From: an uncultured Planctomycetales bacterium
GTDB taxonomy: Bacteria > Omnitrophota > Gorgyraeia > Gygaellales > Profunditerraquicolaceae
NCBI GenBank assembly: GCA_964579435.1
Contig: CAZOGI010000001.1
Span: forward strand, 157,907-221,906
Length of the DNA stretch: 64,000 bases
Direction: 5' to 3'
Part shown: positions 1-45,419 of the stretch, one piece after another
How the letters are laid out: the number at the start of each line of letters is the position of its first letter
Position numbering within the stretch: the stretch's first letter is position 1
Made by a program: the position numbers and the translations under genes
The notes under the pieces: model-generated
Database searches by the model: none
What the model was told of the DNA's origin: nothing
The model's input: only the letters and a program-made list of their open reading frames with translations

Positions 1-480
1 ATAGGGAATAAAGCGTTTGCAGTCAAACGACACCAGCCCCGAGAACTGCCAGTCATCGAGAACCGCTTTGTGCTTGACGACGCCGACATCGATCGAGTGC
101 GGATGGATACTGATGTGCTGAAAGCCGACGGTTGCTTTCAGGCGTTCGCCGGAAAAAGCGGCGTAGCGGAATCCGTAGCCTCCCCCCATATACGTCGGAT
201 AATCCAGTTCGTCCGCCGCCCCGGGGTGCTGCTTGATATATCCCGCCCCGCCCTTGAGGTCGACGCTGAATCGCTGCGTCAATCCGTACGAAAGCAGGAA
301 AAAATCCTGCCACGAGCGCAACTCGCCGGCAGAATGCTCCTGATAGCGGTTCAGGAGCGCATAGCTCTGCAGGCCGATCACGACCTGCCGCTTTTGCGGC
401 TGCGTCGGCCCCATGCAGGGCGCTGCCGTGGCAACCGCGGCCCAGGCCGTCAGAAGAAACCCGATCAGAAAAACCCTCAT
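1..480 (-). CDS. Partial CDS whose 3' end lies beyond the window start: signal-peptide protein, putative outer-membrane beta-barrel-like hypothetical
   Basis: Own translation of the minus strand from ATG at 478-480 gives MRVFLIGFLLTAWAAVATAAP... and stays open for 160 codons to position 1. The start overlaps the stop of the upstream gene as ATGA. It is absent from the ORF track because there is no stop inside the window. The Gly/Tyr/Phe-rich alternating pattern (YPTYMGGGYGFRYAAF) is beta-barrel-like. Confidence 0.5.
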   Translation of the reverse strand, partial: MRVFLIGFLLTAWAAVATAAPCMGPTQPQKRQVVIGLQSYALLNRYQEHSAGELRSWQDFFLLSYGLTQRFSVDLKGGAGYIKQHPGAADELDYPTYMGGGYGFRYAAFSGERLKATVGFQHISIHPHSIDVGVVKHKAVLDDWQFSGLVSFDCKRFIPY

Positions 481-1145
481 TGTCGCTTTCCTGCAGGAAA
501 CCCCCGCAGCGGACACTCCCCGCAGCGCGGATGCTGTTTATGGCAGTATTCTTTCGCGACCCTGACGAACAACGCGTGGTATTCGTTAAATAATTGTACC
601 TCTTTTTTCAGGTTTTTCATGAAAAATTTTTGCGCCTCCTCGTAGGAGACATCCTCCGGCAGCAGACGGTGACGCGCCAGAACGCGTTTCGTGTAGGCAT
701 CGACCACGAAAACCGGGCGGGCGAAGGCATAGAGAAGGATAGAGTCGGCGGTTTCCGGCCCCACGCCGTTGATCCGCAGCAACTCCTCCCGCAACTGCTC
801 CTGCGGCACCTGACGCAGTCGCGTCAGCCGGCCGCCGCAACGCCGCATCAGCCAGCCGAGTGTATTGCGCAGCCGTTGCGCCTTGAGCCGGTAATATCCC
901 GCGGGCCGGATCAACCGCTGCAATCTGCCGGTGCGTATGGATAAAACCCCCCGGAGAGAGAGTGCACGCGCCGCCCTGAGGTTACGGATCGCGCGCTCGA
1001 CGCTACCCCAGTTGGTGTTCTGGGTCAACACCGCTCCGACAATGACTTCGCAGGGGGTGCGCGCCGGCCACCACCCCTGCGGACCAAAATGCCGATAGAG
1101 CAGGCGAAAAAGGGAGCGCACCAGAACCTGTTCCGTGGCCGACAT
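477..1145 (-). CDS. HhH-GPD superfamily DNA glycosylase (endonuclease III-like)
   Basis: Motifs VIVGAVLTQNTNW, INGVGPETADSILLYAF and VFVVDAYTKRV. I prefer the internal ATG (MSATEQVL...) at 1145 over the track start at 1214. Confidence 0.7.
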   Translation of the reverse strand: MSATEQVLVRSLFRLLYRHFGPQGWWPARTPCEVIVGAVLTQNTNWGSVERAIRNLRAARALSLRGVLSIRTGRLQRLIRPAGYYRLKAQRLRNTLGWLMRRCGGRLTRLRQVPQEQLREELLRINGVGPETADSILLYAFARPVFVVDAYTKRVLARHRLLPEDVSYEEAQKFFMKNLKKEVQLFNEYHALFVRVAKEYCHKQHPRCGECPLRGFPAGKRQ

Positions 1146-1149
1146 ACGG

Positions 1150-3111
1150 TTATTCGGAGAACTGCAAGGGGTTATAGCCGTAATAGGCGAAGAGCGTGTA
1201 GGCGGTGCCGGCAACCGAACCAGTGGCTTTACCTTTGGGAGTCACCCAGCCATGGCCGGTATCAACCGACTGTTCCGAGGCATACGGCAGACAACCCTGC
1301 CCTTGTCCCGACGGAGAGGGACTGGAAATAACCATCTTTGCCAACTCATTGAGATAGGCGCTGGCCTTTTCTGCATAGAGCGCGGCCTTCGCGGCCTCGT
1401 TGCGCGAAGCAAAATAGCGCGAGAGGATCTGATACGAAACGACCATCTGGGCGGTCCATTCCGGGGAAACGATGCCGCCGCGGGCCAGGTGCCGCTGCGC
1501 CGCGAAATCAAACCCGCGCACGCGCACCGCCGCTCCCTCCGGGCGCACATAGGAAACCTCGACGCCGCACTGGGTCTCGGCGAACGCCATGATCTCCTGC
1601 GGATCCATGCCCAGCTCGCTGAGCTTTTCCGGTCCGATGCTGGCAATCGACCAGGCATAGGTATCGGTGGCCACCGTAGCATCGCCTTTGCCGCGCTGCA
1701 CCGGAACCTCGCCGCGGTCATAGGTATGCGCCTGGAGCCAGGAGAGCACCCGTTCCGCCGCCTGCTGGTATCGCTCGTGCCCGGTCATACGGCTCAGCAG
1801 ACGGTAAAAAGCGTAGGCATCCAGATTGTGCTCGGTAGCAAACCAGGAGACGTTGGGTCCGCCGCGGATACCGCCGCCGTCATCCTCCTGCTGCAACTGC
1901 AAGATGGCCGCGGCAATCTCCTGCGCCAGCGGCAGAAAGGTCTCGTCACCGGTCTGGCGGGTATACTGCAGCGCCGCGATTCCCAGCCAGATATTGGGTC
2001 CGGCATGCACGACGTATTCCGCAGGCGTCCCGTCGTTGAAATAATAGGCGTTGACGAAGCGGCCGTCGATGCGTTTTGCCCGCTGCGCGAAAAAGGCCAG
2101 GATATTCCGGGCGCGCGCCGCGTCGTTGAAGAGCAGGTACGCCTGCACCGCCAGCGCCTGGTCGTACACGAACGCCCAGCCGCCGACGGCATCGTCCCCT
2201 TCAAAACTCAAGACCAGGCCGGTGCGCGGATTCTGGTGCACCGCCAGCCACTGATACATTTTCTGGATATTGGCCTTCTCCAAGACCGCCTTACGGTGGA
2301 CCAGACGCGCTATCTGGGTGCTCGTCTGCGCCTCATTGGTCCGGACCCGCTGGAGGCGATGCTGCAGGATCGAGCGCTCCGTCAGGAGCTTGCCGATAAG
2401 CGTGTTGAGCTTGCTCAGGCGCTCTTCCTGGCGCAGGGACGAGGTACGCGCCGCCTCCAGATCGTTCAGATGTACCTCCAGCCGCTGCAACTTCTGTTGC
2501 AGATCCGCGCGCGCCGCGCTCAGGGAGTGGATCTGCTGCTCGGCCGCTGAGGTTTCCTGAGAGACTTTGACCAACTGGGAGATGAGCTGCTGGTTGCCGC
2601 TCACCAGCCGCGCGTTCCAAGCCGCGCTCAAAAGCAGACCGGCCCCCAGGAGAACGAAAATCCCGGCCACGATCGGCGCGGTCAACACGCGCGTCCAGGC
2701 AAAACGCAAAAGCATCCTGCCGTCCGCGGCATCGATCTGCTCATAGCGGACGCCGAAGAGATACCGGCCGACCCCGTCGGTATCCTGGCGCATCCAGGCC
2801 GCGGCGCCGCGGGCACTGACCAGGCGCTTGGTGAACGGAGTCTCGATCTCGAGGGAGAATTGTGCCTTCTGGGAAGCGAGCTTTTCTGCGGCGTCGGCGG
2901 AGAAACGGTTAACCGTCAGACAGATCCCGCCTTTACCTATATTGTTGGTGAAACCCTGGAACCACTCGGAGAGAAAATGTTTCCCGTCGCAGCTGACGAG
3001 CCTAAACTCAACCGGCAACACCGTATCCAGACGCAGGTATTGGCGGCGGTTCGACCGGTTGCCGGTGCCGGGCTGCCCCAAAGACTTATGGTCGCTGGCC
3101 GGGATCGTCAT
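1150..3111 (-). CDS. PilZ-domain protein with one TM helix, a coiled coil and a C-terminal (alpha/alpha)6 glycoside-hydrolase-like domain
   Basis: N-terminal PilZ-like motifs RRQYLR and NIGKGGICL. TM segment LTAPIVAGIFVLLGAGLLLSAAW, followed by a Gln/Leu-rich coiled coil. The C-terminal 350 aa resemble a six-hairpin glycosidase fold (WAFVYDQALAVQAYLLFND... NIWLGIAALQY... FATEHNLDAYAFYRLL). ATG at 3109-3111. Confidence 0.6.
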   Translation of the reverse strand: MTIPASDHKSLGQPGTGNRSNRRQYLRLDTVLPVEFRLVSCDGKHFLSEWFQGFTNNIGKGGICLTVNRFSADAAEKLASQKAQFSLEIETPFTKRLVSARGAAAWMRQDTDGVGRYLFGVRYEQIDAADGRMLLRFAWTRVLTAPIVAGIFVLLGAGLLLSAAWNARLVSGNQQLISQLVKVSQETSAAEQQIHSLSAARADLQQKLQRLEVHLNDLEAARTSSLRQEERLSKLNTLIGKLLTERSILQHRLQRVRTNEAQTSTQIARLVHRKAVLEKANIQKMYQWLAVHQNPRTGLVLSFEGDDAVGGWAFVYDQALAVQAYLLFNDAARARNILAFFAQRAKRIDGRFVNAYYFNDGTPAEYVVHAGPNIWLGIAALQYTRQTGDETFLPLAQEIAAAILQLQQEDDGGGIRGGPNVSWFATEHNLDAYAFYRLLSRMTGHERYQQAAERVLSWLQAHTYDRGEVPVQRGKGDATVATDTYAWSIASIGPEKLSELGMDPQEIMAFAETQCGVEVSYVRPEGAAVRVRGFDFAAQRHLARGGIVSPEWTAQMVVSYQILSRYFASRNEAAKAALYAEKASAYLNELAKMVISSPSPSGQGQGCLPYASEQSVDTGHGWVTPKGKATGSVAGTAYTLFAYYGYNPLQFSE

Positions 3112-3133
3112 CGAAAGAGGCCTCGCACGGCGT

Positions 3134-5563
3134 TCATTCCTTCTGACCCTGCGATAGTTTGTTCTGCCGCAGGACTATATGTTGTTTGCACCGGTATGCC
3201 AGGCGCTGCATAAATTCCCTGAATGCCGCGTACTCCGGAAGCGGAACCGTTGATTTCTTACGCACCAGCTCCTGCCTAAAAAATATTGTATTCTTTTTCT
3301 GGCGGTATGCAACCGTAAAAGACAGCCAGGGACTGTCTTCAAAGAAACTCTCCGGAAGCGAAAGGACGCTCAGGCTTGCAGGCAATTCGATCTGGAACTC
3401 ATTCTCCTTGGCTTCCAGGCATTCAAATTCAAGCGGATAGCTGCGCCTGGCCAGGGCGACCGCTGACACATCCAGGGAGGGAAGCTGCGGGATGATGCGC
3501 AGCGATCCGGCGCGCGCGAAATACTCCGGCCCGCGGAAAGAGTACCGCAGCAACGGCGTCTCTCCCAGCCCGGCGGCGTTCCTGGTCTCGTACCGGGACA
3601 GCTGCGCCCCGATAGAAAAATCCTGTATCCTGCCGGCCAGCTCCTGCTCGATGAGCTCCGGGGGCGTGAAGAGGAACCAGTGGCGCATGGCCTGCGCGTT
3701 CAGCCCGTAGGAAAGAACCGTCCGCTCCGCCAAAACCGATTCAGCATCAGCCTGTACCCACAGCTTCAGATCCTGCTTAAGCAGATTGTGGGCGGCCGCA
3801 AACGCCGGCGTCCGCAGGATCCGGTAGCCGTCGGGGCCGCAGAGCAGCACCGTGCGGTCCTGGTCGCCCAGCGGCAGATCCCCGAACGAGCAGGTCTGTG
3901 CCGTCGGATCGAGAAAAACCGTCTCCCCGTCGATCTCGGTGGCGGCGATACAATGGTTAAAGAGCACCGTCGAGAAATCGGCGCGCATGTCGGGCAGCTC
4001 CTTTGTCGGGATAAGCACCGGCCATCCCGGCAGCCCGGCGGCGCGCAGCATCGTCACCAAGAGAACCGCCTGATCTTTACAGTCGCCGTACTTGTTGCGG
4101 AAGATATCGGCGGCGGCGTGCGGCTCATACCCGGCCTCGCCGTATTCGACCGCGACATAGCGGATCTCCTGCGCACAATACTCGTAGAGCGCCTCTGCGC
4201 GTTCCCGCGGCGAACGCGCAGAACGCAGGAGCTCCCCGATTTTAGCCTGGATCGCCTCGTCCGCCCGGATCTTATCCTTCGCCAGATTCCACCACCACTC
4301 GTACACCTCCTGCCAGTCGTCAAACGTCGACAACAACACCGTCGGATTGATCCGGGCCTCCTCGGGCATGAGCGGCTCGGGAATGATCTGGGGGATATCC
4401 GCCATCACCCACTCATAGGCCGGCCCCCGCGCGGTCTCGGTTACGACCGGCTGCATCTTTACCCCGAAAGAGTTGTATTCCTCGTTGAGCAGGAGCGAAG
4501 AGAGCCTGCGTCCCGGAGGCAGGCTGACCTGAAGCGCCGCGCGCATGATCGGCTCACCCGACTGCACCGGATAGCGCAGCACAAAATCCTTGCCGTTGAT
4601 GAGCTCGTGCGAGACGATACGCGCCCGGTACTCGACGACCGAACCGACCGCCACTTCGGGGAAAGAGATGATGAGAACGCGCGCGTTGCTGTAGAGGGGG
4701 AAATTCAGGTACTTCGAAACGTCCCGCAGGTGCCTCGTCCCGACGTCGACGACCGTCCCGTCGGGCTTGATCGTGCGGGCATACTCCAGCTCTATCTTTT
4801 CGTACGTCGAATCGTACTCGAGGGGCAGCTCCGAGAATGCCTCTTTGCCGCGCTCGTTGAGGATCTTAATGACGTAATGCAGGCTCGTCTCCTGGCCGTT
4901 GCCGGGGCCGACGCTTAAACGTTCGTCACAGAGCAGGATGAGGGCGCCCGCCTGCGGGTACCGCTCTTTCCCCGGGGCTGCGGCGATCAAGGCGCTGATC
5001 TCGGGAGCGGCATCTCTGATATGAACCAGTCCCATTTGGCGTTCGATCGCGCCGATGCGCTCGGCGGCCCGGCCGGCAAATGCGGGTTGGGTGATCAAAC
5101 GGTAGTGCTGCAACGCCTGATCAAAGAGGTTCAGTTTCTCGGCGGTGAGGGCGCGGAAATATCGCATTTCTTCGTCAACGGGATCGTGCGTGCGCAACAC
5201 CTCCAGGGCATCGGTATACTGCCCGAGCCGATACAGCGTTATCCCCAGGTATTTGCGTGCCTCGGGCAGTGCGCTTTGACGCAGATGCTCCAGGGCTTTC
5301 TCGAACTCCGCGTGATCGAAATAGAGCCTCCCCAGCGCCGCATGCGTGCGGTCGGTATCGATGCCGCGGAGCAAACCTTCCTGATAGCCTGCAACCGCTT
5401 GACGGTAATAGGACGCCGAAACCTCCGCCAAACGAGCGGGAGAAGCGAGTCGTTCCTGACGGCAGCCGCCGGCGCAGCAGAAAAATGCCCCCAGCAGGAA
5501 CGCGCTCCCCAGAAGAACGCCCCGCTTTTTTCCCCCGAAGCGATTACGTAACGCGGTATTCAT
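3134..5563 (-). CDS. Transglutaminase-like (DUF3857-type) lipoprotein with N-terminal TPR repeats
   Basis: The internal ATG at 5561-5563 (MNTALRNRFGGKKRGVLLGSAFLLGAFFCCAGGC, a lipobox-like signal) is chosen over the 922-aa track ORF. TPR-like segment LGRLYFDHAEFEKALEHLRQ. Transglutaminase core Cys in YGDCKDQAVLLVTMLRAAGLPGWPVLIPT. Confidence 0.6.
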   Translation of the reverse strand: MNTALRNRFGGKKRGVLLGSAFLLGAFFCCAGGCRQERLASPARLAEVSASYYRQAVAGYQEGLLRGIDTDRTHAALGRLYFDHAEFEKALEHLRQSALPEARKYLGITLYRLGQYTDALEVLRTHDPVDEEMRYFRALTAEKLNLFDQALQHYRLITQPAFAGRAAERIGAIERQMGLVHIRDAAPEISALIAAAPGKERYPQAGALILLCDERLSVGPGNGQETSLHYVIKILNERGKEAFSELPLEYDSTYEKIELEYARTIKPDGTVVDVGTRHLRDVSKYLNFPLYSNARVLIISFPEVAVGSVVEYRARIVSHELINGKDFVLRYPVQSGEPIMRAALQVSLPPGRRLSSLLLNEEYNSFGVKMQPVVTETARGPAYEWVMADIPQIIPEPLMPEEARINPTVLLSTFDDWQEVYEWWWNLAKDKIRADEAIQAKIGELLRSARSPRERAEALYEYCAQEIRYVAVEYGEAGYEPHAAADIFRNKYGDCKDQAVLLVTMLRAAGLPGWPVLIPTKELPDMRADFSTVLFNHCIAATEIDGETVFLDPTAQTCSFGDLPLGDQDRTVLLCGPDGYRILRTPAFAAAHNLLKQDLKLWVQADAESVLAERTVLSYGLNAQAMRHWFLFTPPELIEQELAGRIQDFSIGAQLSRYETRNAAGLGETPLLRYSFRGPEYFARAGSLRIIPQLPSLDVSAVALARRSYPLEFECLEAKENEFQIELPASLSVLSLPESFFEDSPWLSFTVAYRQKKNTIFFRQELVRKKSTVPLPEYAAFREFMQRLAYRCKQHIVLRQNKLSQGQKE

Positions 5564-6638
5564 AGGAAATGGCACAACTCCCTTCCCGGGAGACCATACA
5601 CGGCCCCAGCGGAGACTGCGGCCTACAGCGGCGCGCGAACAACGGGCAGCGCGGCGGATCGAGCTTTCCCCGCAACACCGCAGCACAGCGACAGCCTTCC
5701 CGGGGAGAAACCGGCTGCCTCTGCCTCCGCAGCGCAACGGCATGCCGGGCATCAAAATGAGCGAATTGCGCCCGGAAAGAGAATCCGCTTTCCGCGATAG
5801 AGCCGAACCCGCGCCAGACCGCAGCTTTCGGTTCGAAGACGCGATCCAGGATGCGCTGGGCATGCACATTACCCTGTGGCCGCACGACCCGGCTATATCC
5901 ATTCTCGACCCGCGCGATGCCGCGGCGCAACTGCCGCAACAGCGTCAAGATCCCGCAGAGCATATCCGCAGGCTCAAACCCGGCCACACAACAGCCGATG
6001 CCGTACGTCCGGGCAAACGGCTCATACGCGCGCGTCCCGATAATAACCGACACATGCCCGGGACAGAGGATGCCGCTGATATCGACACCCTTGCCGCGCG
6101 CCAGGAACGAGAGGACCGGCGGGATACGCTTGAGCGCGTTGAGAAAAAAAAGGTTCCCGACCTTCTGGCGGCTGGCCTGCAAAACCGCCAGCGCCACTGC
6201 CGGGGCAGTTGTTTCGAATCCGACACCCAAAAAGACAATCTTTTGTCGCGGATTCTCCCGCGCCAGGGAGAGAGCCTCCAGCGGCGAATAGACCGTGCGA
6301 ATCCGGGCACCGGCTGCACGCGCCGCGGCAAGACTGCCAAAACTGCCCGGGACCAGCAGCATGTCCGCGAAGGTCGCCACCTGAACCCCGGGCGAGCGGG
6401 CATAGGCGATCGCCGTATCGATATAGCGTTGGTCGCTGACGCAGATCGGACAGCCGGGACCGGAGACCAGGCGGACCGTCTTCGGCAGATACCGGTTCAG
6501 GCCGAAGCGGTGGAAGGCGCGGGTATGCGTCCCGCAGACCTCCATCAGGACCGCCGGTTCCCGCGGCGCAAAGCGCTGCAGAAGCCCTCCGAGCCGTTCC
6601 AGATGCCGCGGGGAGCGGAACTCGTCAACAAATCTCAC
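5544..6638 (-). CDS. hypD: Hydrogenase maturation factor HypD
   Basis: N-terminus MRFVDEFR..., then LMEVCGTHT, GPGCPICV, and a C-terminal Cys cluster. GTG start at 6636-6638. Overlaps the hypC stop. Confidence 0.85.
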   Translation of the reverse strand: MRFVDEFRSPRHLERLGGLLQRFAPREPAVLMEVCGTHTRAFHRFGLNRYLPKTVRLVSGPGCPICVSDQRYIDTAIAYARSPGVQVATFADMLLVPGSFGSLAAARAAGARIRTVYSPLEALSLARENPRQKIVFLGVGFETTAPAVALAVLQASRQKVGNLFFLNALKRIPPVLSFLARGKGVDISGILCPGHVSVIIGTRAYEPFARTYGIGCCVAGFEPADMLCGILTLLRQLRRGIARVENGYSRVVRPQGNVHAQRILDRVFEPKAAVWRGFGSIAESGFSFRAQFAHFDARHAVALRRQRQPVSPREGCRCAAVLRGKLDPPRCPLFARRCRPQSPLGPCMVSREGSCAISYEYRVT

Positions 6639-6834
6639 GTAACACCCTCAGGGTCTCGGCGGCCCGCCGGGGATCGATCTTCTCGATGGCGAAACCGGCA
6701 TGGACCAGAACATACTCCCCGACCGCGACGCCCGGGACCATGGCGATGTTTATCCGTCGCTGCAGCCGCCCGGCAGCGACCGTGGCAAACGAGCCCTCTT
6801 TACTGACGATCTTCAACGGAACGGCAAGGCACAT
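6625..6834 (-). CDS. hypC: Hydrogenase assembly chaperone HypC/HupF
   Basis: N-terminal MCLAVP motif, 69 aa, directly upstream of hypD. Confidence 0.85.
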   Translation of the reverse strand: MCLAVPLKIVSKEGSFATVAAGRLQRRINIAMVPGVAVGEYVLVHAGFAIEKIDPRRAAETLRVLREIC

Positions 6835-6837
6835 ATC

Positions 6838-7983
6838 TTAACCCTGGAAAGAAGAAAACCGGCTCTTCGGTGAACAGGAAGCGATGACCGCCTGCCCGAG
6901 GGAGACCGACGCGTCCCCCGCGGGAAGCCGGCGATGCACCCGCACGCAAAACCCCGCTTTATATAGTAACGCACCCAGGTGCTCCCGCACAAGGGTATTG
7001 TGCATGACCCCGCCCGCAGCCACCACCGTGTTGATTCCCGTTCTGGCGCGCAGGCGCACGCATACCGCCGCAGCAAGGTGCGCCACGGAATAGTGCAGCG
7101 CGGCCGCAATATCCGCGCGGCTTTGTTTGGCCTTCAGGTCAACGACGATCCCGCGCACGATCCCACCGAGGGCAACCTCCAGGCATCCTGCACGTTCCCG
7201 CAGGCGGTACGGATACAGCCGCGGCGGGTTCCGGCTGCGGCGGGCCAGCGCTTCGAGTGCCCGCGGCAGCTGCGCCTCGGCGCACGAATCCCGGCAACAC
7301 AGGATGATGCTCGCCGCGGCATCAAAAAGACGCCCGGCGCTGCTGGAGAGCGGCGACGCAAATCCGCTGGCAGCCAGCGCCAGAACCGCCCGTGCTTTTT
7401 TGCGGGGAAGGCCTTTTAAAAAACTCAAGCCCTGCCGCCACAGACGCTCGCCGTAGAGACGCTGCAGCCATACCAAAGCCACCCGCCACGGCTCCCGGAT
7501 CGCCGCTTCTCCTCCGGGCAGAACAACAGTCTCAAGGTGCCCGGCGCGGATATAGCTGCGGTAATCGCAGATCAAAAACTCTCCTCCCCACAGCGTGCCG
7601 TCGCTGCCGTACCCGGTGCCGTCAAAAGCGATGCCGATCACCCGGCGGTTAGGCAGGCCGCTTTCGGCCATAGCCGCAGCGATATGCGCGTGGTGATGCT
7701 GGACGCGGACCAGGGCCACCCGGCGCCGGGCCGCCACCTCCTGCGCGTACCGGGACACGCTATAGCCTGGATGCAAATCCGCCGCCAGAACGTGCGGCCC
7801 CCTCTGCATCCACCGACGGACCGCTTCCCTGAAGCGCACGCGCTGGCGATACTCGCTGCAGTCGCCGTGGAGACGCGAGAAAGAGGCGGACCGGCCGGAG
7901 GCGAAACAGAGGGTATTTTTCGTTTCGGTGCCGAAGGCCAAAACCGGGGTCGGAACCGGGAAAGGCAGCGCAAGCCTATGCAT
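6838..7983 (-). CDS. HypF-like carbamoyltransferase, Kae1/TsaD-like C-terminal domain only (no acylphosphatase, Zn-finger or YrdC domains)
   Basis: AFGTETKNTLCFASG matches the start of the HypF Kae1-like domain. Histidine-rich HHHAHIAAA and GGVMHN motifs. The start was moved to the internal ATG (MHRLALPF) at 7983. Adjacent to hypC and hypD. Confidence 0.6.
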   Translation of the reverse strand: MHRLALPFPVPTPVLAFGTETKNTLCFASGRSASFSRLHGDCSEYRQRVRFREAVRRWMQRGPHVLAADLHPGYSVSRYAQEVAARRRVALVRVQHHHAHIAAAMAESGLPNRRVIGIAFDGTGYGSDGTLWGGEFLICDYRSYIRAGHLETVVLPGGEAAIREPWRVALVWLQRLYGERLWRQGLSFLKGLPRKKARAVLALAASGFASPLSSSAGRLFDAAASIILCCRDSCAEAQLPRALEALARRSRNPPRLYPYRLRERAGCLEVALGGIVRGIVVDLKAKQSRADIAAALHYSVAHLAAAVCVRLRARTGINTVVAAGGVMHNTLVREHLGALLYKAGFCVRVHRRLPAGDASVSLGQAVIASCSPKSRFSSFQG

Positions 7984-8818
7984 CGTTTCCCTCCGCAGCC
8001 ACCAGCTCCAACGAAACGATCGCATCGACCCGGAACGTCCGCTCGGCACCGCGCAGCAGGCAATGCCCGCGCACGTACGAAACGCCGTTTTCCTTGAGGA
8101 TCTGCTGCGGCACGATCAAACGTTGGCTGAGCGGGCCGCCGCTTTTCGCCAAGTAGCGAATCGCAAGGCGCGCCCCGTCGTCGATCGCCTCCTGGATGCG
8201 CGAGATCTTTTCCTGTTCGCGGGCAGCCAAAGCGCTGTGGGGAAGCGCACAAAGATCCAGGAACGTATCGGTATCCCTGATGCCTTTTGCCTGCAGCAGA
8301 CCAAGCAGGGCCAGAAAAACACGCGCGGTCAACTCCACATCCGCTCCGGCGCGGTGCGCCTGAGGAATGCCCAGGCCCAGCGCCTGCGCCACCGCCTGCA
8401 GCGAATAGCGCTCCTGTCCCGGCAAGAGCCGGCGCGCCAGCCGCAGGATATCCGCCACTATCATCTCTGCCGGTTCCGCCAACCCTGCCGCTGCAAGCTC
8501 GGCGCGCAAAAACGCCAGGTCAAAACGGGCGTTGTAGGCGCAGACGCAGCTGCCCTGGATAAAGCGCAGAAACTCCGGCAGCACCGCGCGGCAGACGGGC
8601 TTGCCCGCCAGCATTGCGTCGCTGATATGGTTGACCGCGAAGGCGGCCGGCGACACCGGGCGTTGCGGATCGATGAGTGTTTCAAAAACCGCCTCGGTCA
8701 CGTCCCCGCGCAGACGCAGTGCCGCCAACTCGACGATACGGTCTCCCGTCTCCGGATTCAGTCCGGTCGTCTCGGTATCGAATATGGTAAAAACGGTACG
8801 GTCAAGCGCCTGTCCCAT
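7976..8818 (-). CDS. DnaQ-like 3'-5' exonuclease (DEDDh) fused to a C-terminal WYL-like domain
   Basis: Exo I motif FDTETTGL, then YNARFDLAFL and HRAGADVELT. C-terminal LAIRYLAKSGGPLSQRLIVPQQILKENGVSYVRGHCLLRGAERTFRVDAIVSLELV matches the WYL consensus (the ...RtFrldRI.. motif). Confidence 0.6.
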   Translation of the reverse strand: MGQALDRTVFTIFDTETTGLNPETGDRIVELAALRLRGDVTEAVFETLIDPQRPVSPAAFAVNHISDAMLAGKPVCRAVLPEFLRFIQGSCVCAYNARFDLAFLRAELAAAGLAEPAEMIVADILRLARRLLPGQERYSLQAVAQALGLGIPQAHRAGADVELTARVFLALLGLLQAKGIRDTDTFLDLCALPHSALAAREQEKISRIQEAIDDGARLAIRYLAKSGGPLSQRLIVPQQILKENGVSYVRGHCLLRGAERTFRVDAIVSLELVAAEGNDA

Positions 8819-9710
8819 GCCCCGGATACGCTACAAACGCCGGAATTAAACGCAGCGGACGGTACGATCTCTTGACCGCTCGCAGGTTCTCCAGTCCGGA
8901 ATCGTCCATAACGTTGATAAACGGATACGCGCGGAGTTCCGCGCAGAGCTCGCGGAAGATATATTGGGCCGCCCCCTTCAACGCAAGGTCGGTGAATTCA
9001 AAGAGGACGCAGAATGTCCGGGGGCTCAAGGCCACCCCGAAGGTGAAGGCGCAGAGTATGCCGTCGGCCGTCGCCACCCGGCCGATGCCCCCGAGTTTTT
9101 CAAAACCATCCAGGAGCACCCGCAGGCAACTGAAGGTGTCCTCGAGCATGCCCCGGTAAAGCGGATCGCTGCTGCGCTCCCGGCGCTGGCACATCCACCG
9201 CTGAAAGAGGCGTACGCATTCCTGCCGGTCGCTGCCCCGGTACGGCCGGTACTGCGCCCGGCAGTGTTTGACGAAATAATTGTACGCGGCGCGCTTTGAT
9301 TTATAGGCGTTGCCCGTCAGCCGGGCAAGACAGGAGCGATCGCAGACGTACTCCCCGGATTTCTCGCTGCAAGAAAACCCGCCTTCGGCAAACAACGCAC
9401 GTTCCGGAGCTTCGATATTCTCGATCCGGGTAACGCCGCTTTCGCCGTTTATCCGGCGCAGGCGCTCACCCGCAGTACGCGCCGCCACGATCCTCTTGCC
9501 CTTACCCAGCGGTGGCAGAAAGAGGAACGCGCCGACGCGGTCCCGGAAAAACACGCACAGCTGTTCGTCGATGAGCTGCCATTCTATGCGATAGAGCTCT
9601 TGCCAGATAAAAATGGAAGCGAAGGCGTACGCGGACAATTCGTGTTCGCGCTCACCCAGAAACAAAGAAAAAGTCCGACGATGCGCATACTGCAGCTTAT
9701 GCAGGCTCAT
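8802..9710 (-). CDS. DUF2156 domain protein (homolog of the C-terminal aminoacyl-tRNA-dependent transferase domain of MprF/LysX)
   Basis: GNAYKSKRAAYNYF motif plus overall pattern. 302 aa, stand-alone. The family assignment is from memory, not a search. Confidence 0.5.
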   Translation of the reverse strand: MSLHKLQYAHRRTFSLFLGEREHELSAYAFASIFIWQELYRIEWQLIDEQLCVFFRDRVGAFLFLPPLGKGKRIVAARTAGERLRRINGESGVTRIENIEAPERALFAEGGFSCSEKSGEYVCDRSCLARLTGNAYKSKRAAYNYFVKHCRAQYRPYRGSDRQECVRLFQRWMCQRRERSSDPLYRGMLEDTFSCLRVLLDGFEKLGGIGRVATADGILCAFTFGVALSPRTFCVLFEFTDLALKGAAQYIFRELCAELRAYPFINVMDDSGLENLRAVKRSYRPLRLIPAFVAYPGHGTGA

Positions 9711-10203
9711 GCGGGATATCCAGCTCGATAAGCTCCAAAACGTCCTCGTACGCCTGGATGATCTGCGGATTTTCGCTCAGGAGCCTGCGGTAGGCGCGGG
9801 AATTGAGCAGTTCGGTCAGCGAGGAGACATGCGCCTTGAACGCCGGCTGCGCCAGCCGGGAGGCGACATACGGGCAATTCAGGTCGACCGTCAATACCAC
9901 GCGCTTCTTGCGTACATTCAGCAGAAACGGATACAACTGGCATTCAAATGGCCGGGTCGCGTAGACCTTGCATTTGTTCGAAGCGCGCTCAAGGAACGGA
10001 CACCAGAAATATCCCGCGCTCTCGTCGGGCACCAGGACCAGCCGCTTATCCGGCGAGATCGAAACGGCGGGGGCGGCGGCGTCGACAAAGGAGAGGATCT
10101 CCTCCTCCAGCAGACAGGGCGCCCATGCCGAATGCGCCTCCCGGAACCGACAGCATCCCTGGCAGGAAAGGCAGACCTGCGACGGAACGAATTGCGGGAT
10201 CAT
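9697..10203 (-). CDS. YkgJ-family Zn/Fe-S cysteine-cluster protein (UPF0153)
   Basis: CLSCQGCC and CPFL...C...C cysteine spacing. 168 aa. Overlaps both neighbours. Confidence 0.55.
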   Translation of the reverse strand: MIPQFVPSQVCLSCQGCCRFREAHSAWAPCLLEEEILSFVDAAAPAVSISPDKRLVLVPDESAGYFWCPFLERASNKCKVYATRPFECQLYPFLLNVRKKRVVLTVDLNCPYVASRLAQPAFKAHVSSLTELLNSRAYRRLLSENPQIIQAYEDVLELIELDIPHEPA

Positions 10204-10520
10204 TTAACCACGCTGCCGACGGCGACCTTCTTTTCCGGAGTCACGATAACCGGACCGCTCTCACCCGATGCAGCCAGGAGCATCCCCTGGCTTTCGACAC
10301 CTCGCAGCATCGCGGGCTCCAAATTGTCGACCAGCACGACCTGCCTGCCGATCAGGGAGTCCTTGTCATAGGCGTTGCGGATCCCCGCAACGACCTGTTT
10401 GCTGCGGCCGCCGACGTCCAACGTTATAACGTAAAGCCGGTCTGCGTTCGGATGCTCAGTGACCGCGGTAATCTCGGCAATACGCAGCTCAAGCTTTTTA
10501 AAATCATCGATCGTGATCAT
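10200..10520 (-). CDS. tRNA-binding protein (CsaA/Trbp111-like EMAP/OB-fold domain; MetG C-terminal-like)
   Basis: LRIAEITAVTEHPNADRLYVITLDVGG...QVVAGIRNAY, 106 aa. GGAGGGGGT sits upstream of the ATG. Confidence 0.65.
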   Translation of the reverse strand: MITIDDFKKLELRIAEITAVTEHPNADRLYVITLDVGGRSKQVVAGIRNAYDKDSLIGRQVVLVDNLEPAMLRGVESQGMLLAASGESGPVIVTPEKKVAVGSVVK

Positions 10521-10544
10521 ACCCCCTCCGGTGCCCCGCTGCCG

Positions 10545-12068
10545 TTAGAACGTCCATTCCAAAGACAACTCTACCTGGTAAGCCGCATCCGCCTTTGCGT
10601 CTCCCCGCACGAAAGGGGTCAAAAGGCTCCCGTCGACGTCATCGCGCCGCTCCCGGTAAAAATTCCCGGGGATAAAGTAACCGGCAAGCAGGCTTACCAG
10701 GGCGCGTTCGTTCATTTGATAATCGAGCGTCACATCCACTTCATAGCCCAGCTCTGCCGAGAGCGCGCGCGGCTCCCCTTCCCACATGCCGACCCCCCGG
10801 GCAAAACAACGAAGATAGTATCCCTGCACCGTCACCAACACCGCATCGGTGAGGGATACCTCACAGCCCAGAGAAGGCATCAGCAGATTATCGTAATCAG
10901 ACGCCCCGAAGGTCCCGGGACGGGGAACCCCGTAATTGAGACCCCACCCGCTGCCCATTGCCACCAGCGGCTTGGCATCGCAGCTCTCCTGGCCGATGGA
11001 GTCGCCCTGGGCCTGATTGAGCGACGAGAAGACGCTGAACGCCCGGTTTTTGCCGCGGGAGAGTGTCGCATCTTGCGCCAACACTTCCTCCTCGGTAACG
11101 GCGTTGCCGGAACAGACGAGGAATTCCCCGAACGGGACGACCCGTTCTTTCCCGTAGGCTACCCTGCCGTATACCAGATATCCCTGATGCTGAATATCCT
11201 TAAAGGAGGGGTCGCCGCTTTGGGCAACCCCGAAATTGCGGGCGCACTCCGCCTTGAACGCAAAAGGCGCAGCCTCATAGGTCAGGGCAAACCCTGCGGT
11301 GCCGAGGATATCGTGCTTTACCGGCGCGCCCCAGAGCGAATCGCGTTTGCCGGCCGCAGTATAATCGCTTAGTACCCCGCAGTACGGCTGCAGCCACAGC
11401 CGCTCCCTGCGCCAGGAGAGATCAGCTGCCCAGAAGTTGATCGCCCCCGGATGGTAATCAATCCCTTGCTCCTCGTCCTGACGGATACGCGCACCGAGAT
11501 GGTTTTTCAGGTGCGCGTCCGGCCGGCAGTAGTAGAGGTGCCAGGAGAACGGCTCCGCCTCGCGGTACAATTTCACGCCGATGTTCTCATAACTGCCGTT
11601 GAGGCTCATCCCCAGTCCGACGACATAGCTCGTCAGGCCGGCCTGGACCCGGAAACGGTCCCGCCAGGGCACATCCACCCACAACTCCTCCAACTGCGGG
11701 AGAAGCTCATCGTCACGGTACGCCTCGATGCGGCCGCCCGACGTCAAAAGAGCATTGCTTACCCACAGCGGCGCCGAATAATCGAACGGCCCGTTGCGTT
11801 CTATCTTCAGATATGCCCGCAGGCCATCGTCTTTGTGCGTATACCCCAACCCCAGGCTGTAATCAAACCCGATCGACGCGCTGCGGTCATCGGTGTTGCG
11901 ATGATCGAGGTCCACCGTATTCTCGAAAGTCACCGCATCCGTGCGTTGATACAGCTGCAGGGTCACCTCGGCCCGGGGCGTATCCATAACCGTCAAAGCC
12001 TGCGCGCCGCCTCCGCCGGCACACAGCACCCCCGCCAGACCAAAAACAAGAAAAACTGCCCGCCGCAT
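10545..12068 (-). CDS. Putative outer-membrane beta-barrel protein (alginate-export/porin-like)
   Basis: Signal peptide MRRAVFLVFGLAGVLCAGGGGAQA. Alternating aromatic/Gly beta-strand pattern. C-terminal ...LEWTF aromatic terminus. Confidence 0.4.
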   Translation of the reverse strand: MRRAVFLVFGLAGVLCAGGGGAQALTVMDTPRAEVTLQLYQRTDAVTFENTVDLDHRNTDDRSASIGFDYSLGLGYTHKDDGLRAYLKIERNGPFDYSAPLWVSNALLTSGGRIEAYRDDELLPQLEELWVDVPWRDRFRVQAGLTSYVVGLGMSLNGSYENIGVKLYREAEPFSWHLYYCRPDAHLKNHLGARIRQDEEQGIDYHPGAINFWAADLSWRRERLWLQPYCGVLSDYTAAGKRDSLWGAPVKHDILGTAGFALTYEAAPFAFKAECARNFGVAQSGDPSFKDIQHQGYLVYGRVAYGKERVVPFGEFLVCSGNAVTEEEVLAQDATLSRGKNRAFSVFSSLNQAQGDSIGQESCDAKPLVAMGSGWGLNYGVPRPGTFGASDYDNLLMPSLGCEVSLTDAVLVTVQGYYLRCFARGVGMWEGEPRALSAELGYEVDVTLDYQMNERALVSLLAGYFIPGNFYRERRDDVDGSLLTPFVRGDAKADAAYQVELSLEWTF

Positions 12069-12096
12069 ATCAGCCTCCCGTGAACGGGCTGCGTTC

Positions 12097-12468
12097 CTAT
12101 TGCAGATATTTGCGGATAAACCGGAAGAGCTCTTGCCACTGGAACGGCTTTATAAAGTAATCCTTGGCGCCGAAGGCCATCCCCTCCTCGATATACTGGG
12201 TCTGGCCTTTGGCCGTCACCATGATAACCGGGATCTCGTGGGTGGCATCATGGGCCTTGAGCTGCCGCAGGAGCGTCAATCCGTCCGGGTGCGGCATGAG
12301 GATATCCAGGAGGATGAGGTCCGGCCGCTCTTGGACCGCCAGGGCGAGCGCTTCGGAGGAGTTGGTGGCGCAGATCGCCCGGTACCCTTCGCGCTCCAGG
12401 CGTTCCCGCATGAGCGAGACCACCTCTGGTTCGTCGTCGATCACCAGCAGCGTGTACGGTTTCTTCAT
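12097..12468 (-). CDS. Stand-alone response-regulator receiver domain (CheY-like)
   Basis: The internal ATG gives MKKPYTLLVIDDEPEV...LILLDILMP...VIMVTAKG, 123 aa. The start overlaps the stop of the upstream radical SAM gene by 4 nt. Confidence 0.7.
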   Translation of the reverse strand: MKKPYTLLVIDDEPEVVSLMRERLEREGYRAICATNSSEALALAVQERPDLILLDILMPHPDGLTLLRQLKAHDATHEIPVIMVTAKGQTQYIEEGMAFGAKDYFIKPFQWQELFRFIRKYLQ

Positions 12469-13877
12469 CTGCCTCGCAACAGCATCTTGGCCAAACCCCA
12501 GGCTGCCTGCATATTGAGCCTGAACCGGTTGAGACTGCGCATGCGCAGGAACTCCCTGACGATCTTGGACGGACGCAGATAAAAAGAACGGTATGCCCGG
12601 TGCTGCCATGCCAGCAACTCCTCCGGAGTCAACCCCGGGAGACGATGGATCGGCGGCGTATGGATCCCGAAACGGCGGTAATCGCGGGTCAGGATCGCGT
12701 CTTTGCTCAGGAGGAAATCGTACACCTCGCTTCCGGGATAGGGCTTCAGGATATGGAATTTGGCGATGTCCGGATCGAGCTCTTGGGCAAAGGATATCGT
12801 CTGACGGATCGAATCGGGGGTCTCCGCAGGCAACCCGATCATAAAAAACCCCCACAGCTCCAGGCGTAATTCCCGCGCCAGCGCGAACACCTCTTTGAGC
12901 CGGGCGATGTGCGTTCCCTTATGCGCCGCGTCCAGAACCTCCTGGCTGCCGGATTCCACCCCGATAGCCAGACTGTAGGTCCCCATCTCCTTGAGCGCCG
13001 TTAATACCTCGCGCGAAAGAAAATCGGCGCGGATCCCGTTGGGAAAGGCGAAACAGACCTTGAGCTTGCGCCGCTGGATCTCGTCGCGGATGGCGAAGAC
13101 CCGTTGGCGGTCGGTCGTGAAATTGTCGTCCCAGACATGGATCTCGCGGATACCGTAGCGGCGCACCAACTGTTCGATTTCATCGGCAACCCGCAGCGCG
13201 CTGTGCGCCCGGAAGACCCGGCCGCAAACCCGGTGTGACATGCAGTAGCTGCACCGGCCGGGACAGCCGCGGCTGGTCATGATCGGCGCGGTCCGGCGGT
13301 AAAGCGCGTCGGGATACGTGTAGTGGGTGACCGAAAAAAGGTGCCGTGCCGGAAAGGGCAACCGGTCCAGATCCGTCAGAAGCGGACGCGCTTCATTTTC
13401 GACAATACCCCCGGTTTCGTCCTTGTATGAGAGCCCGCGCACGCCGGCATAAGAACCCCCGGCCTTCAGACAATCAACCAGCTCCCGCAGCGTCTCCTCC
13501 CCTTCCCCGCGCACGACCATATCGACCGCCGGATTCCGCAACACCTCCCGCGGCAGGATCGTCGGATGCGTTCCCCCGAAAACGACGCGGGTCTGCGGAC
13601 TGTATCGCTTGACCGCGGCAGCCAGGTCAAACGCGGTAAAGAGCAGCGGGGTCGTGACGGTGCAGCCGAAAAGGTCGAAACGTTCGGCGCGGATCAGCGC
13701 GACAAAATCGTCGAGCGTCAGGCGCTGGGCCTCCATATCCACCACGCGCACCTCTTCCTGCAGGAGCATCGCCGCCAGGTAGGCCAGTCCCATATGCAGC
13801 TGCACCGGGGAGCGCATCGGCCCGTAGATATCGCTGGCGGGGGGATTGACCAGCAGGATGCGTACGTTCTTTTTCAT
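12465..13877 (-). CDS. B12-binding-domain radical SAM protein
   Basis: N-terminal B12-binding-like MKKNVRILLVNPP... Radical SAM MTSRGCPGRCSYCMSH CxxxCxxC-type cluster. ATG at 13875-13877. Confidence 0.7.
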   Translation of the reverse strand: MKKNVRILLVNPPASDIYGPMRSPVQLHMGLAYLAAMLLQEEVRVVDMEAQRLTLDDFVALIRAERFDLFGCTVTTPLLFTAFDLAAAVKRYSPQTRVVFGGTHPTILPREVLRNPAVDMVVRGEGEETLRELVDCLKAGGSYAGVRGLSYKDETGGIVENEARPLLTDLDRLPFPARHLFSVTHYTYPDALYRRTAPIMTSRGCPGRCSYCMSHRVCGRVFRAHSALRVADEIEQLVRRYGIREIHVWDDNFTTDRQRVFAIRDEIQRRKLKVCFAFPNGIRADFLSREVLTALKEMGTYSLAIGVESGSQEVLDAAHKGTHIARLKEVFALARELRLELWGFFMIGLPAETPDSIRQTISFAQELDPDIAKFHILKPYPGSEVYDFLLSKDAILTRDYRRFGIHTPPIHRLPGLTPEELLAWQHRAYRSFYLRPSKIVREFLRMRSLNRFRLNMQAAWGLAKMLLRGR

Positions 13878-13897
13878 CGTGGCAGAGGAGGCGTCGT

Positions 13898-13935
13898 TAA
13901 AAAAAACTCCGCACAAAACGTGCGGAGTTTTTTGT
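13898..13935. terminator. Bidirectional rho-independent terminator
   Basis: Perfect 9-bp stem actccgcac/gtgcggagt with a 5-nt loop, flanked by an A8 run upstream and a T6 run downstream, so it functions on either strand. Lies between the entericidin-like gene and the radical SAM gene. Confidence 0.6.
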
Positions 13936-14014
13936 TCGGCTTGCGTTTACCCCGTAAAACCACAGCGGAATAGGCGTTTCCCGCGCGCGGCGCGGCGCGG
14001 GAAGAAAAACGGAC

Positions 14015-14173
14015 TTACCACAAATGTTCCCGCATCCAGGCGTCGGCCTCCTGCAGATTGACGTTGGTGTTCTCGATGTCCTTCGCGGCACCTTTCATTG
14101 TCTCGCAACCGGCAGACAAAAAGAGGCAGCCGAGCACAAACAAAAGCGCCAACCCTGTTGCCCTTCTTCTCAT
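14015..14173 (-). CDS. Small entericidin-like lipoprotein (EcnA/EcnB family), 52 aa
   Basis: Own translation: MRRRATGLALLFVLGCLFLSAGCETMKGAAKDIENTNVNLQEADAWMREHLW. The lipobox LSAGC followed by ETMKGAAKDIE matches the entericidin pattern. Its ATG overlaps the gltX TGA (ATGA). Below the ORF-track size cutoff. Confidence 0.45.
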   Translation of the reverse strand: MRRRATGLALLFVLGCLFLSAGCETMKGAAKDIENTNVNLQEADAWMREHLW

Positions 14174-15474
14174 ACGCCGCTCCTTTGTATCCATCGTTCG
14201 AGCCGCTCCTCGGTACGCGCCCTTCCCAGACAGGCAATGGTCTCAAACAGGCCCGGGCCAACCGTTTTTCCGGTCAGCACGACCCGCAAAGGATGAACCA
14301 GTTCCCGCGCCTCGATCTTCAGCTCACCCACGAGGCCCCGGAACGTCTCTTCGATCGAAATGGCATCCCAATGCGCCAGTCCGTTGAGGCGCTCGCGCAA
14401 CAGACTCAGCGCTTCGGACCAGTCTCTCTTTAGATACTTCTGCCGCGCCTGCTCCTCGATGGCGTAATCGTCGCGGAAGAAAAAATCGGCACGGCCGGGA
14501 AAATCGGTTAAACGGGTAAGCCGTTCTTTGAATAATTGTACCAAAGAAACCAGATAGTTTCTATCAAATTTATCGGGTGAGAGCAATCCCGCTCCTTCCA
14601 ACAGCGGCAGGAGCATCTCCGCCAGCTGCTGCGGATCAGCGGCGCGGATATACTGGTTGTTCATCCAGTCCAGCTTCTTCATATCGAAAGTCGCGGCGGT
14701 CTTGTTCACGGCACGGATATCGAAGAGGCGAACCGCCTCTTCGGGAACGATGATCTCCCGGTCGTCCTTGGGAGACCAGCTCAAAAGCAAAAGATAGTTG
14801 ACCAGGGCCGCCGCCAGATATCCCATCTGGCGGTATTCCGAGATCGCCGTCGCACCGGTGCGCTTGGAGAGGCGCCCCCCCTCGATACCCATGATCAGCG
14901 GCAGATGCGCAAACGCCGGGAGGTCGAAACCGAGAGCCTCATAGAGGAGCACCTGCTTGGGGGTGTTGGAGATGTGATCGTCTCCCCGGATGACATGGGT
15001 GATCCCCATGAGCGCGTCGTCGACGACACAGGCGAAATTGTAGGTCGGGGTGCCGTCGGACTTGATCAAGACCTGATCCTTGATCACGCCGGAGTCAAAC
15101 GAAATTTCGCCGCGGATCAGGTCTTTGACGACGATCGGGCGCGGGACGACCTTGAAGAAGATCGCCTCGCCTTTGCCTTCGGTCGTCTGAAGATACGCCG
15201 CGCCCTCCCGAAGGAGGCGTTCTGCCTGCTGGCGGTAGAACGCAACGCGCTGGCTCTGGAAAAACAGCTCGTCCCAGGAAAACCCCAGCCACGTCAGGCT
15301 CTGCAGGATCTCGTCGACATACTCCTGTTTGGAGCGCGCCTGGTCCGTATCCTCGATGCGCAGGATAAACGTTCCCTTCTGCGCGCGCGCATAGAGCCAG
15401 TTGAAGAGCGCAGTGCGCGCACCGCCGATATGCAGGAATCCGGTAGGGCTGGGAGCGAACCGAACGCGGGTCAT
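14170..15474 (-). CDS. gltX: Glutamate--tRNA ligase
   Basis: RFAPSPTGFLHIGGARTA (HIGH region), RLSKR (KMSKS-like), 434 aa. Confidence 0.85.
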   Translation of the reverse strand: MTRVRFAPSPTGFLHIGGARTALFNWLYARAQKGTFILRIEDTDQARSKQEYVDEILQSLTWLGFSWDELFFQSQRVAFYRQQAERLLREGAAYLQTTEGKGEAIFFKVVPRPIVVKDLIRGEISFDSGVIKDQVLIKSDGTPTYNFACVVDDALMGITHVIRGDDHISNTPKQVLLYEALGFDLPAFAHLPLIMGIEGGRLSKRTGATAISEYRQMGYLAAALVNYLLLLSWSPKDDREIIVPEEAVRLFDIRAVNKTAATFDMKKLDWMNNQYIRAADPQQLAEMLLPLLEGAGLLSPDKFDRNYLVSLVQLFKERLTRLTDFPGRADFFFRDDYAIEEQARQKYLKRDWSEALSLLRERLNGLAHWDAISIEETFRGLVGELKIEARELVHPLRVVLTGKTVGPGLFETIACLGRARTEERLERWIQRSGV

Positions 15475-15995: not shown

Positions 15996-16011
15996 GCATC
16001 TGCTCCTTCGC

Positions 16012-16755: not shown

Positions 16756-16799
16756 CGATCGTTTCTTTGTCTCTGCGCCCGCGCAAGGGCTTTTATTCT

Positions 16800-20219: not shown

Positions 20220-20255
20220 GCCCTGCCTCGCTTTGCGCTGAACCGGTGCGCATTT

Positions 20256-45393: not shown

Positions 45394-45419
45394 TTTGCTC
45401 TCCCTCGGTAAGTGGCAAC

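Follow-up and report, generated by a model that had tools for sequence, protein, structure and literature searches.

Investigating the first 13,877 nucleotides (nt) of a 64,000-nt stretch from an uncultured Omnitrophota bacterium (assembly GCA_964579435.1, contig CAZOGI010000001.1, positions 157,907 to 221,906 of the forward strand; this whole stretch is called the window in the following), we came to regard the region as probably belonging to an operon-like array of genes that is specific to the lineage of Koll11-class Omnitrophota and is built of a constant frame and of optional cassettes; the window would hold the 5' two-thirds of this array. The biology of Omnitrophota, which are uncultured and for the most part ultra-small, is deduced from their genomes. 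Among 123 related loci, 122 have the array genes in strictly colinear order and on a single strand, with median identities to our queries of 41-68%. Their order starts with the genes for a free-standing tRNA-binding protein (tRNA_bind), a YkgJ-type cysteine-cluster protein (CxxCxxCC), a stand-alone DUF2156 protein and an exonuclease fused to a WYL domain (exonuclease-WYL), continues with the pabB-pabC and hypF_C-hypC-hypD genes where these are present, then with a transglutaminase-like (TGase) lipoprotein and a PilZ-domain protein, and ends with HhH-GPD, a small outer-membrane protein (OMP), M20, PAC2, HAD, hypE where present, and UPF0280. The constant frame would thus run from tRNA_bind to exonuclease-WYL and from the TGase lipoprotein to UPF0280, with OMP and HAD as its less regular members, and would hold two optional cassettes at fixed sites: pabB-pabC after the exonuclease gene, and the genes for the [NiFe]-hydrogenase cofactor, which are split into hypF_C-hypC-hypD ahead of the TGase gene and hypE ahead of the UPF0280 gene. 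The window edge falls within the OMP gene, so that M20, PAC2, HAD, hypE and UPF0280 are predicted just past coordinate 1. An earlier reading of this DNA from the sequence alone (the sequence-only reading) had proposed a super-operon of fourteen genes ending at the window edge; this boundary does not hold, as in relatives the array continues with the genes just named.

With an alignment of the TGase protein as probe, 80 loci were collected from species-representative genomes and 80 from metagenomes, each with 10-kb flanks (single loci bear L numbers below). Array genes were placed in these loci by tblastn, and colinearity was counted over the 123 non-duplicate loci in which four or more of the array genes were located. 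The order had first been seen on three contigs carrying homologues of the short HypF described below, where the Chorismate_bind and Aminotran_4 genes as well as HAD were optional and where the PilZ-like protein measured 560-650 amino acids (aa), the OMP ~240 aa and the AIRS/AIRS_C protein 335 aa. The neighbour-joining tree of the TGase protein is star-like with long terminal branches, and the related loci therefore stem from deeply separated species. Following the taxonomy of Seymour et al. (2023), the named loci belong to Gorgyraia (GWA2_41_15) and to Velamenicoccia/Gygaellales (UBA6233, RBG_13_41_10, Undivivens, Gygaella). All of them fall in the GTDB class Koll11, and conservation of the array is confined to this one class-level clade. 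The genome and metagenome collections searched held no close relative of the window, the best TGase identity being ~55%. On the TGase tree its nearest relatives are L042, L044, L050, L065 and L071 (the latter being Undivivens industriae), with a guanine-cytosine (GC) content of 55-58%; the window itself has 59.5% GC and the related loci a median of 43.6%.

The sequence-only reading had named a gene order unique to this genome as the result that would count against it, and in this respect it stands on firm ground. Eleven of the fourteen window genes (tRNA_bind through OMP) share order, strand and tight junctions with the related Omnitrophota loci, although the proteins are only ~40-55% identical, and we hold the linkage of these eleven, as judged by their comparative order, to be real and selected. 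Two features expected of an operon are found here, namely a single strand with short or overlapping junctions and an order which is kept in distant relatives between variable flanks, and co-transcription of the array is plausible. The genes would then be read into a single long polycistronic transcript, perhaps with minor starts inside it, and its translation would be coupled via overlapping stop and start codons. No prior description of the array was found in the searchable literature; as a conserved multi-function operon cluster, it is a fresh example of an already known kind. With the closest known array it shares its length, the strict colinearity on one strand over deep divergence amid decaying gene order around it, and a core accompanied by variable neighbouring units; it differs in its content, a mix of envelope, tRNA-related, repair, peptidase and metallocentre genes in place of a single cellular machine, in its restriction to one class-level clade, and in the optional cassettes at fixed internal sites. 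Fixed landmarks of this sort, with 15-20 genes colinear over class-level divergence, are rare in Omnitrophota genomes, and the array marks a dozen poorly understood genes (DUF2156, YkgJ, DUF3857-TGase, PilZ-barrel, PAC2 and UPF0280 among them) as co-inherited and probably co-expressed.

Within the window, open reading frame (ORF) listing and translation bear out the fourteen co-directional genes from position 13877 to the window edge, and the domain labels that the sequence-only reading had given to the array genes are each backed by Pfam. From the 5' end of the run, the features are as follows.

13899..13933, minus strand: intrinsic terminator hairpin with A-tract, 8-bp GC core and U-tract, terminating the upstream unit of gltX and a small lipoprotein gene
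12465..13877, minus strand: B12-binding radical SAM enzyme (rSAM), 470 aa; PF02310 and PF04055
12097..12468, minus strand: stand-alone response-regulator receiver domain (REC), 123 aa; PF00072, 1.8e-29; ATGA overlap with the rSAM gene
10545..12068, minus strand: predicted outer-membrane beta-barrel with signal peptide (OMP507), 507 aa; weak Alginate_exp match
10200..10520, minus strand: free-standing tRNA-binding domain protein (tRNA_bind), MetG C-terminal/Trbp111-like, 106 aa; PF01588, 3e-28; TIGR00399, 111 bits; first gene of the conserved array
9697..10203, minus strand: YkgJ-type CxxCxxCC cysteine-cluster protein, 168 aa; PF03692
8802..9710, minus strand: stand-alone DUF2156 / LPG_synthase_C protein, 302 aa; PF09924, 1.3e-22
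7976..8818, minus strand: DEDDh (DnaQ-like) 3'-5' exonuclease fused to a WYL domain, 280 aa; PF00929 (RNase_T) and PF13280
6838..7983, minus strand: short HypF with the Kae1-like carbamoyltransferase domain only, 381 aa, opening the optional hyp cassette; PF17788 and PF22521
6625..6834, minus strand: HypC, 69 aa; PF01455, 4.7e-25, 88 bits
5544..6638, minus strand: HypD, 364 aa; PF01924, 4e-131, 437.7 bits
3134..5563, minus strand: lipoprotein with TPR, DUF3857, transglutaminase-like and DUF3858 domains (by Pfam), 809 aa
1150..3111, minus strand: PilZ-domain / transmembrane / coiled-coil / alpha-alpha-barrel protein, 653 aa; PF07238, 4.9e-5; sub-threshold PF03663, faintly GH76-like
477..1145, minus strand: HhH-GPD endonuclease III-related DNA glycosylase-like protein with 4Fe-4S loop, 222 aa; PF00730, PF00633 and PF10576
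1..480, minus strand: small outer-membrane beta-barrel protein (OMP) with signal peptide and no Pfam match, cut by the window edge with its first 159 codons inside

The thirteen junctions measure, from rSAM to OMP, -4, +28, +24, -4, -14, -17, -8, +3, -14, -20, +22, +4 and -4 nt, values which rest on start codons chosen to fit the upstream stops. The eight overlaps of the sequence-only reading (4, 4, 14, 17, 8, 14, 20 and 4 nt) were found as the same set, and ATGA is present at all three places it had named (12465/12468, 10200/10203 and 477/480). Its range of 22-29 nt for the gaps applies to three of them, of 22-28 nt; two further gaps of only 3 and 4 nt do not fit it. Among the encoded proteins, the TGase lipoprotein is the frame member with the highest conservation (49-50% identity to three relatives in the alignment), and the edge-cut OMP is homologous to a 253-aa gene product of L014, with ~250 aa in relatives. 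The HhH-GPD protein scores 100 bits against NF010494, which is under the cut-off of that model. The rSAM protein has the N-terminal cobalamin-binding domain and the radical SAM core with CxxxCxxC, here CPGRCSYC; it is HpnJ/BchE-like, far under the cut-offs, and reaches no equivalog cut-off.

As to the question which subsets stay linked in relatives, the part from tRNA_bind through OMP is conserved, while rSAM, REC and OMP507 are attached only sporadically. An OMP507 homologue lies directly upstream of tRNA_bind in about nine loci (L006, L009, L016, L028, L082, L088, L093, L100, L144), an rSAM homologue is found close to the array in just three loci (L010, L028 and L118), and REC genes lie upstream of tRNA_bind in three others alone (L029, L053 and L070). 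These three genes are, to judge from their distribution, a lineage-specific 5' head on the array. With hyp but no pab, and with OMP507 as the immediate upstream neighbour of tRNA_bind, the variant in the window comes closest to L082 and L144. The hairpin which the sequence-only reading had placed upstream of the rSAM gene at 13898-13935 is real: its 14-bp stem is formed by AAAAAACUCCGCAC/GUGCGGAGUUUUUU, with further U residues after it, and the RNA fold of the 136-nt spacer that holds it contains this stem (z = -2.6). A riboswitch or leader upstream of rSAM was considered and rejected, as an Rfam scan of 1-16 kb gave only sub-threshold matches driven by the terminator hairpin.

Several observations weigh against reading this region as an operon-like array, and they should be considered together. 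All related loci were found via the TGase gene, and lineages in which the array was lost or scattered are therefore under-sampled; at the most distant TGase homologues, with 38-44% identity (L061, L062, L149, L153, L156, L161-L163), there is no array. Only 22 nt separate the end of the terminator from the rSAM ATG, which leaves no space for a standard promoter ahead of this gene, and no sigma-70-like promoter is visible before tRNA_bind in the window. Among the relatives, an extended -10 motif stands before M20 in 16% and before PAC2 in 13% of the loci, so that internal starts may exist. Over the following 22 kb of the window, 16 of 20 same-strand junctions measure at most 30 nt, several of them being ATGA overlaps. 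The shared direction of ~45 genes from 1 to 45.4 kb can be attributed to the leading-strand layout around a replication-origin region (45400-53461): dnaA (45674-47038), dnaN, a DciA-like gene, gyrB and gyrA lie on the plus strand, yidC (43488-45023), parA, parB and all genes down to coordinate 1 on the minus strand, and the strand switches at ~45.5 kb.

The last two points invite the explanation that the run arose by chance from a compact genome and leading-strand orientation near the origin. Thirteen tight junctions in a row, at the genome's rate of ~80%, have a probability of ~0.05, and tight spacing and shared strand are by themselves weak evidence for significance. It is the comparative data which carry the significance: the same order recurs in 122 of the 123 related loci between variable flanks. 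We consider a chance run highly improbable as an account of the whole; for the eleven conserved genes it is refuted, and for the attachment of rSAM and REC it is possible. A general lesson for genome scanning is that in compact genomes comparative order decides and tight junctions alone tell little.

The borders of the array in relatives point in the same direction as its order. All-against-all clustering of the ORFs from the genome loci (n=77) found array genes in 43-77 of the 77 loci and the commonest flanking family in 24. The upstream neighbours depend on the lineage (V-type ATPase genes, receiver-domain arrays and others), and two alternative continuations exist downstream. Internal junctions have medians from -41 to +25 nt in relatives; the gap before tRNA_bind has a median of 93 nt, with the preceding gene on the opposite strand in 10 of 37 loci, and the gap after UPF0280 one of 187 nt. 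In many loci, a TGnTAtaAT-like box lies 20-45 nt ahead of the tRNA_bind start and is preceded by a hairpin with a T-run. The 150 nt upstream of tRNA_bind contain the extended -10 motif in 34% of loci, as compared with 0-9% for the majority of internal genes. After internal genes, strict terminator-like hairpins occur in 0-4% of loci; they are also rare at the 3' end of the array, too few to define it. In the window, the promoter and terminator scan which the sequence-only reading had asked for gave no hits in the junctions, its overall counts being no better than those of shuffled sequence (6 vs 3.9; 21 vs 18.1). Taken by its borders, the stretch from tRNA_bind to UPF0280 would thus resemble a transcription unit, and a minor start inside it, near M20, is possible.

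These signals also bear on a second explanation, namely that the region is a chain of several small operons, with promoters inside upstream coding sequence, kept together by descent and compaction. The somewhat enriched -10 motifs before M20 and PAC2 speak for it, as do the slightly larger gaps at OMP/HhH-GPD-M20 and M20-PAC2 (medians 18-25 nt, 90% quantiles up to 150 nt), the frequency of intragenic promoters in compact genomes, and the insertion of the cassettes at fixed points, which may be unit boundaries. However, in most species the majority of internal junctions overlap or measure less than 5 nt, most internal genes seldom have a promoter-like motif ahead of them, and strict terminator-like hairpins are nearly absent internally. 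Moreover, the order is invariant, while independent units should shuffle at such divergence, as the flanks do. A chain of separate units is to be taken seriously, yet in our judgement it is doubtful.

The modular composition of the array emerges from presence counts, given as loci in which a gene is present over loci in which its position is covered, that is, bracketed by detected array genes. CxxCxxCC (75/75), DUF2156 (81/83), M20 (74/75) and PAC2 (71/71) are nearly always found. Exonuclease-WYL (79/92), PilZ (85/95), HhH-GPD (76/84), OMP (43/82) and HAD (55/68) are each dispensable. Of the cassette genes, pabB and pabC are present in 56/102 and 60/106, hypF_C and hypD in 64/108 and 68/112, and hypE in 40/60. 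The two parts of the hyp cassette lie 6-7 genes apart and strictly co-vary: genome loci contain both hypF_C/hypD and hypE in 23 cases, neither in 15, with 0 discordant (Fisher p = 6e-11), and metagenome loci both in 20, neither in 5, again with 0 discordant (43, 20 and 0 combined). The hyp genes are therefore a module tied to itself and not to the genes in between, and this split yet co-varying cassette is a natural experiment which sets functionally tied neighbours (hypF_C, C, D, E) against merely co-located ones. On the TGase neighbour-joining tree, hyp presence and absence need ~10 independent changes. The pab cassette is independent of hyp (counts 20/18/12/14), and the frame remains in loci without either cassette. 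In the window genome, the hyp cassette is present at the hypF_C-hypC-hypD site and the pab cassette is absent.

It is this independence which decides on a third explanation, in which all fourteen genes would cooperate as a single dedicated system in one process joining envelope, tRNA, DNA repair and metallocentre maturation. Colinearity and tight junctions kept over ~120 lineages favour such a system, and so do the location of the tRNA-binding protein near an aminoacyl-tRNA-dependent-transferase fold (DUF2156) and the close vicinity of lipoprotein, PilZ protein and OMP in the frame, with the HhH-GPD gene between them. Nevertheless, the hyp and pab cassettes come and go independently of the frame and of each other, five further genes are dispensable as listed above, rSAM, REC and OMP507 are seldom attached, and the hyp genes have a well-established unrelated role. 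We regard a single system of fourteen genes as quite unlikely. Of the one coordinately expressed system suggested by the sequence-only reading, the conserved, tightly linked array of eleven genes persists, while its parts are separable modules and not one obligate functional system. In the array as we understand it, the frame genes would not form a single pathway; they would be inherited and expressed as one unit, in which envelope, tRNA-related, DNA-repair and peptidase functions stand side by side in a genome that is small and compact.

Variation within the frame also includes replacements and insertions. At the position of the small OMP, several lineages (L011, L017, L039, L042, L065, L070, L083) carry instead a protein of ~940 aa which, as judged from its sequence, is M1-peptidase-like in its N-terminal part and forms a BamA-like barrel in its C-terminal part. 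In other lineages, a gene for a 78-aa FmdB-type zinc-ribbon protein is inserted before M20.

The hyp cassette deserves attention for its unusual HypF. The sequence-only reading had labelled the gene product a HypF-Kae1 fragment; it is instead an intact, Kae1-only member of a large family of ~375-aa proteins, with its motifs kept. It aligns with TIGR00143 over model positions 382-740 of 741 only (248 bits vs a cut-off of 466) and with PDB 3vth, the HypF of Caldanaerobacter, over residues 397-746. Pfam gives HypF_C and HypF_C_2 only, and the acylphosphatase domain, the two zinc-finger motifs and the YrdC-like domain of HypF are absent; in comparison with 3vth, the Kae1-like domain retains VQHHHAHIAA, FDGTGYGSDG and AGDASVSLGQ. 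The gene upstream, which overlaps it by 8 nt, encodes an exonuclease. Homologues of the short HypF form more than 120 clusters (~375 aa, 40-46% identity), every named one of which belongs to Candidatus Omnitrophota. HypC, with 69 aa, starts with MCLAVP and thus has the Cys2 motif, and HypD contains SGPGCPICV, GVGFETT and CPGHVS in addition to its C-terminal Cys cluster. HypE was found in relatives only: the 335-aa product of the L014 gene has AIRS and AIRS_C domains and ends with ...EPLPRIC.

Based on what is known of these families, the cassette would build the Fe(CN)2CO group. The Kae1-only HypF would move the carbamoyl moiety from carbamoyl-AMP made elsewhere onto the C-terminal Cys of HypE, HypE would dehydrate it to thiocyanate, and the cyanide would then pass to iron on HypC-HypD. 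A precedent for the short form is HypF1 of C. necator (R. eutropha), which comprises one of the three canonical HypF domains; PMC9100943, with reference to Wolf 1998 and Paschos 2002, describes it as presumably dependent on carbamoyl adenylate. Like the protein described here, HypF1 has the C-terminal Kae1-like domain only and lacks the acylphosphatase, zinc-finger and YrdC-like domains; because the YrdC-like domain is missing, carbamoyl-AMP would in both cases have to come from elsewhere. In contrast to HypF1, the Omnitrophota short form constitutes a large family of its own, and C. necator also has a full-length HypF2. These hundreds of natural Kae1-only sequences bear on the question of carbamoyl-AMP origin raised by C. 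necator HypF1.

In its gene arrangement, the cassette resembles the canonical hyp operons (E. coli hypABCDE and hypF; C. necator hypA1B1F1CDE) in that hypC and hypD are neighbours whose stop and start overlap. The hypF gene directly precedes hypC, an arrangement shared with C. necator hyp1, and the signature motifs of HypC, HypD and HypE are intact. It differs from these operons in the lack of adjacent hypA, hypB or hydrogenase structural genes, in the displacement of hypE by 6-7 unrelated genes downstream, and in its position inside an array of housekeeping type. No hydrogenase, hypA or hypB is found inside the 64-kb window. Group 4 [NiFe] hydrogenases have been reported in Velamenicoccia and Gorgyraia (PMC10066038), which fits the patchy distribution of hyp.

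In L014, a 1.19-Mb contig, a carbamoyltransferase gene of NodU/CmcH/TobZ type (19991-21682; Kae1-like and YrdC-like domains, judged from sequence) lies two genes after hypE. This protein, seen in L014 only, is a conceivable source of carbamoyl-AMP for the short HypF. A bolder reading, which we hold to be unlikely, takes the constant frame as one hitherto unrecognised, clade-defining machine of ultra-small Omnitrophota, which may, for example, be an aminoacyl-tRNA-dependent envelope-modification/remodelling system under c-di-GMP control. A second and narrower reading, likewise unlikely, takes the Kae1-only form as the sole HypF of these Omnitrophota; cyanide synthesis for the [NiFe] cofactor would then depend on a separate source of carbamoyl-AMP.

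DUF2156, or LPG_synthase_C, is the aminoacyl-tRNA-dependent transferase fold of MprF. In the protein encoded here, as in the C-terminal domain of MprF and in stand-alone DUF2156 transferases, this fold spans nearly the whole length; unlike MprF, the Omnitrophota protein, a putative transferase, has no membrane flippase domain. The family consists of ~299-aa proteins whose named members come from Omnitrophota only, no NCBIfam model matches the protein, and its gene lies two genes from that of the tRNA-binding protein. Elsewhere in the window, PheT (28942-30984) has only 680 aa, with B3_4, B5, core and FDX-ACB domains and without tRNA_bind (B2). It is possible that the free 106-aa tRNA_bind protein, which is closest to the MetG C-terminal domain, complements this B2-less PheT in trans.

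Downstream of the array, a promoter-like site, TTGACAA-N11-12-TGTGATAAA, is present after UPF0280 in 23 loci, ~100-270 nt before the next gene. In 1.37 Mb there are 24 plus-strand matches, 23 of them upstream of a Ddl-like ATP-grasp gene (L005-L083). After the site come ~120 nt of leader in which some stretches are conserved, then two genes of Ddl-like type and one for a KamA-like radical SAM protein; site and leader are possibly a promoter with a regulatory leader. As a general promoter model the motif was rejected, being specific to the Ddl-like ATP-grasp gene (23/24 matches), and the looser extended -10 motif was used for the promoter comparison in its place. A defence island was likewise considered for the region and rejected: PADLOC gave generic domain-level matches to DEDDh, WYL, REC and rSAM and no system.

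On the other side of the run, between the rSAM gene and gltX (region 13878-14173), a 52-aa lipoprotein-like ORF (14015-14173) overlaps the gltX stop via ATGA and is followed at its 3' side by a GC-only hairpin (~13978-14003) and then by the terminator. A three-gene 2-oxoacid:ferredoxin oxidoreductase (15471-17870; POR_N/PFOR_II, TPP_enzyme_C and POR gamma) is packed tightly with gltX, a further case of unrelated genes with ATGA-type junctions in the source genome. At the far end of the window, two large plus-strand ORFs without Pfam match follow one another (56285-61489, 1734 aa; 61646-64000, at least 784 aa, running off the window); very long proteins are a known trait of Omnitrophota.

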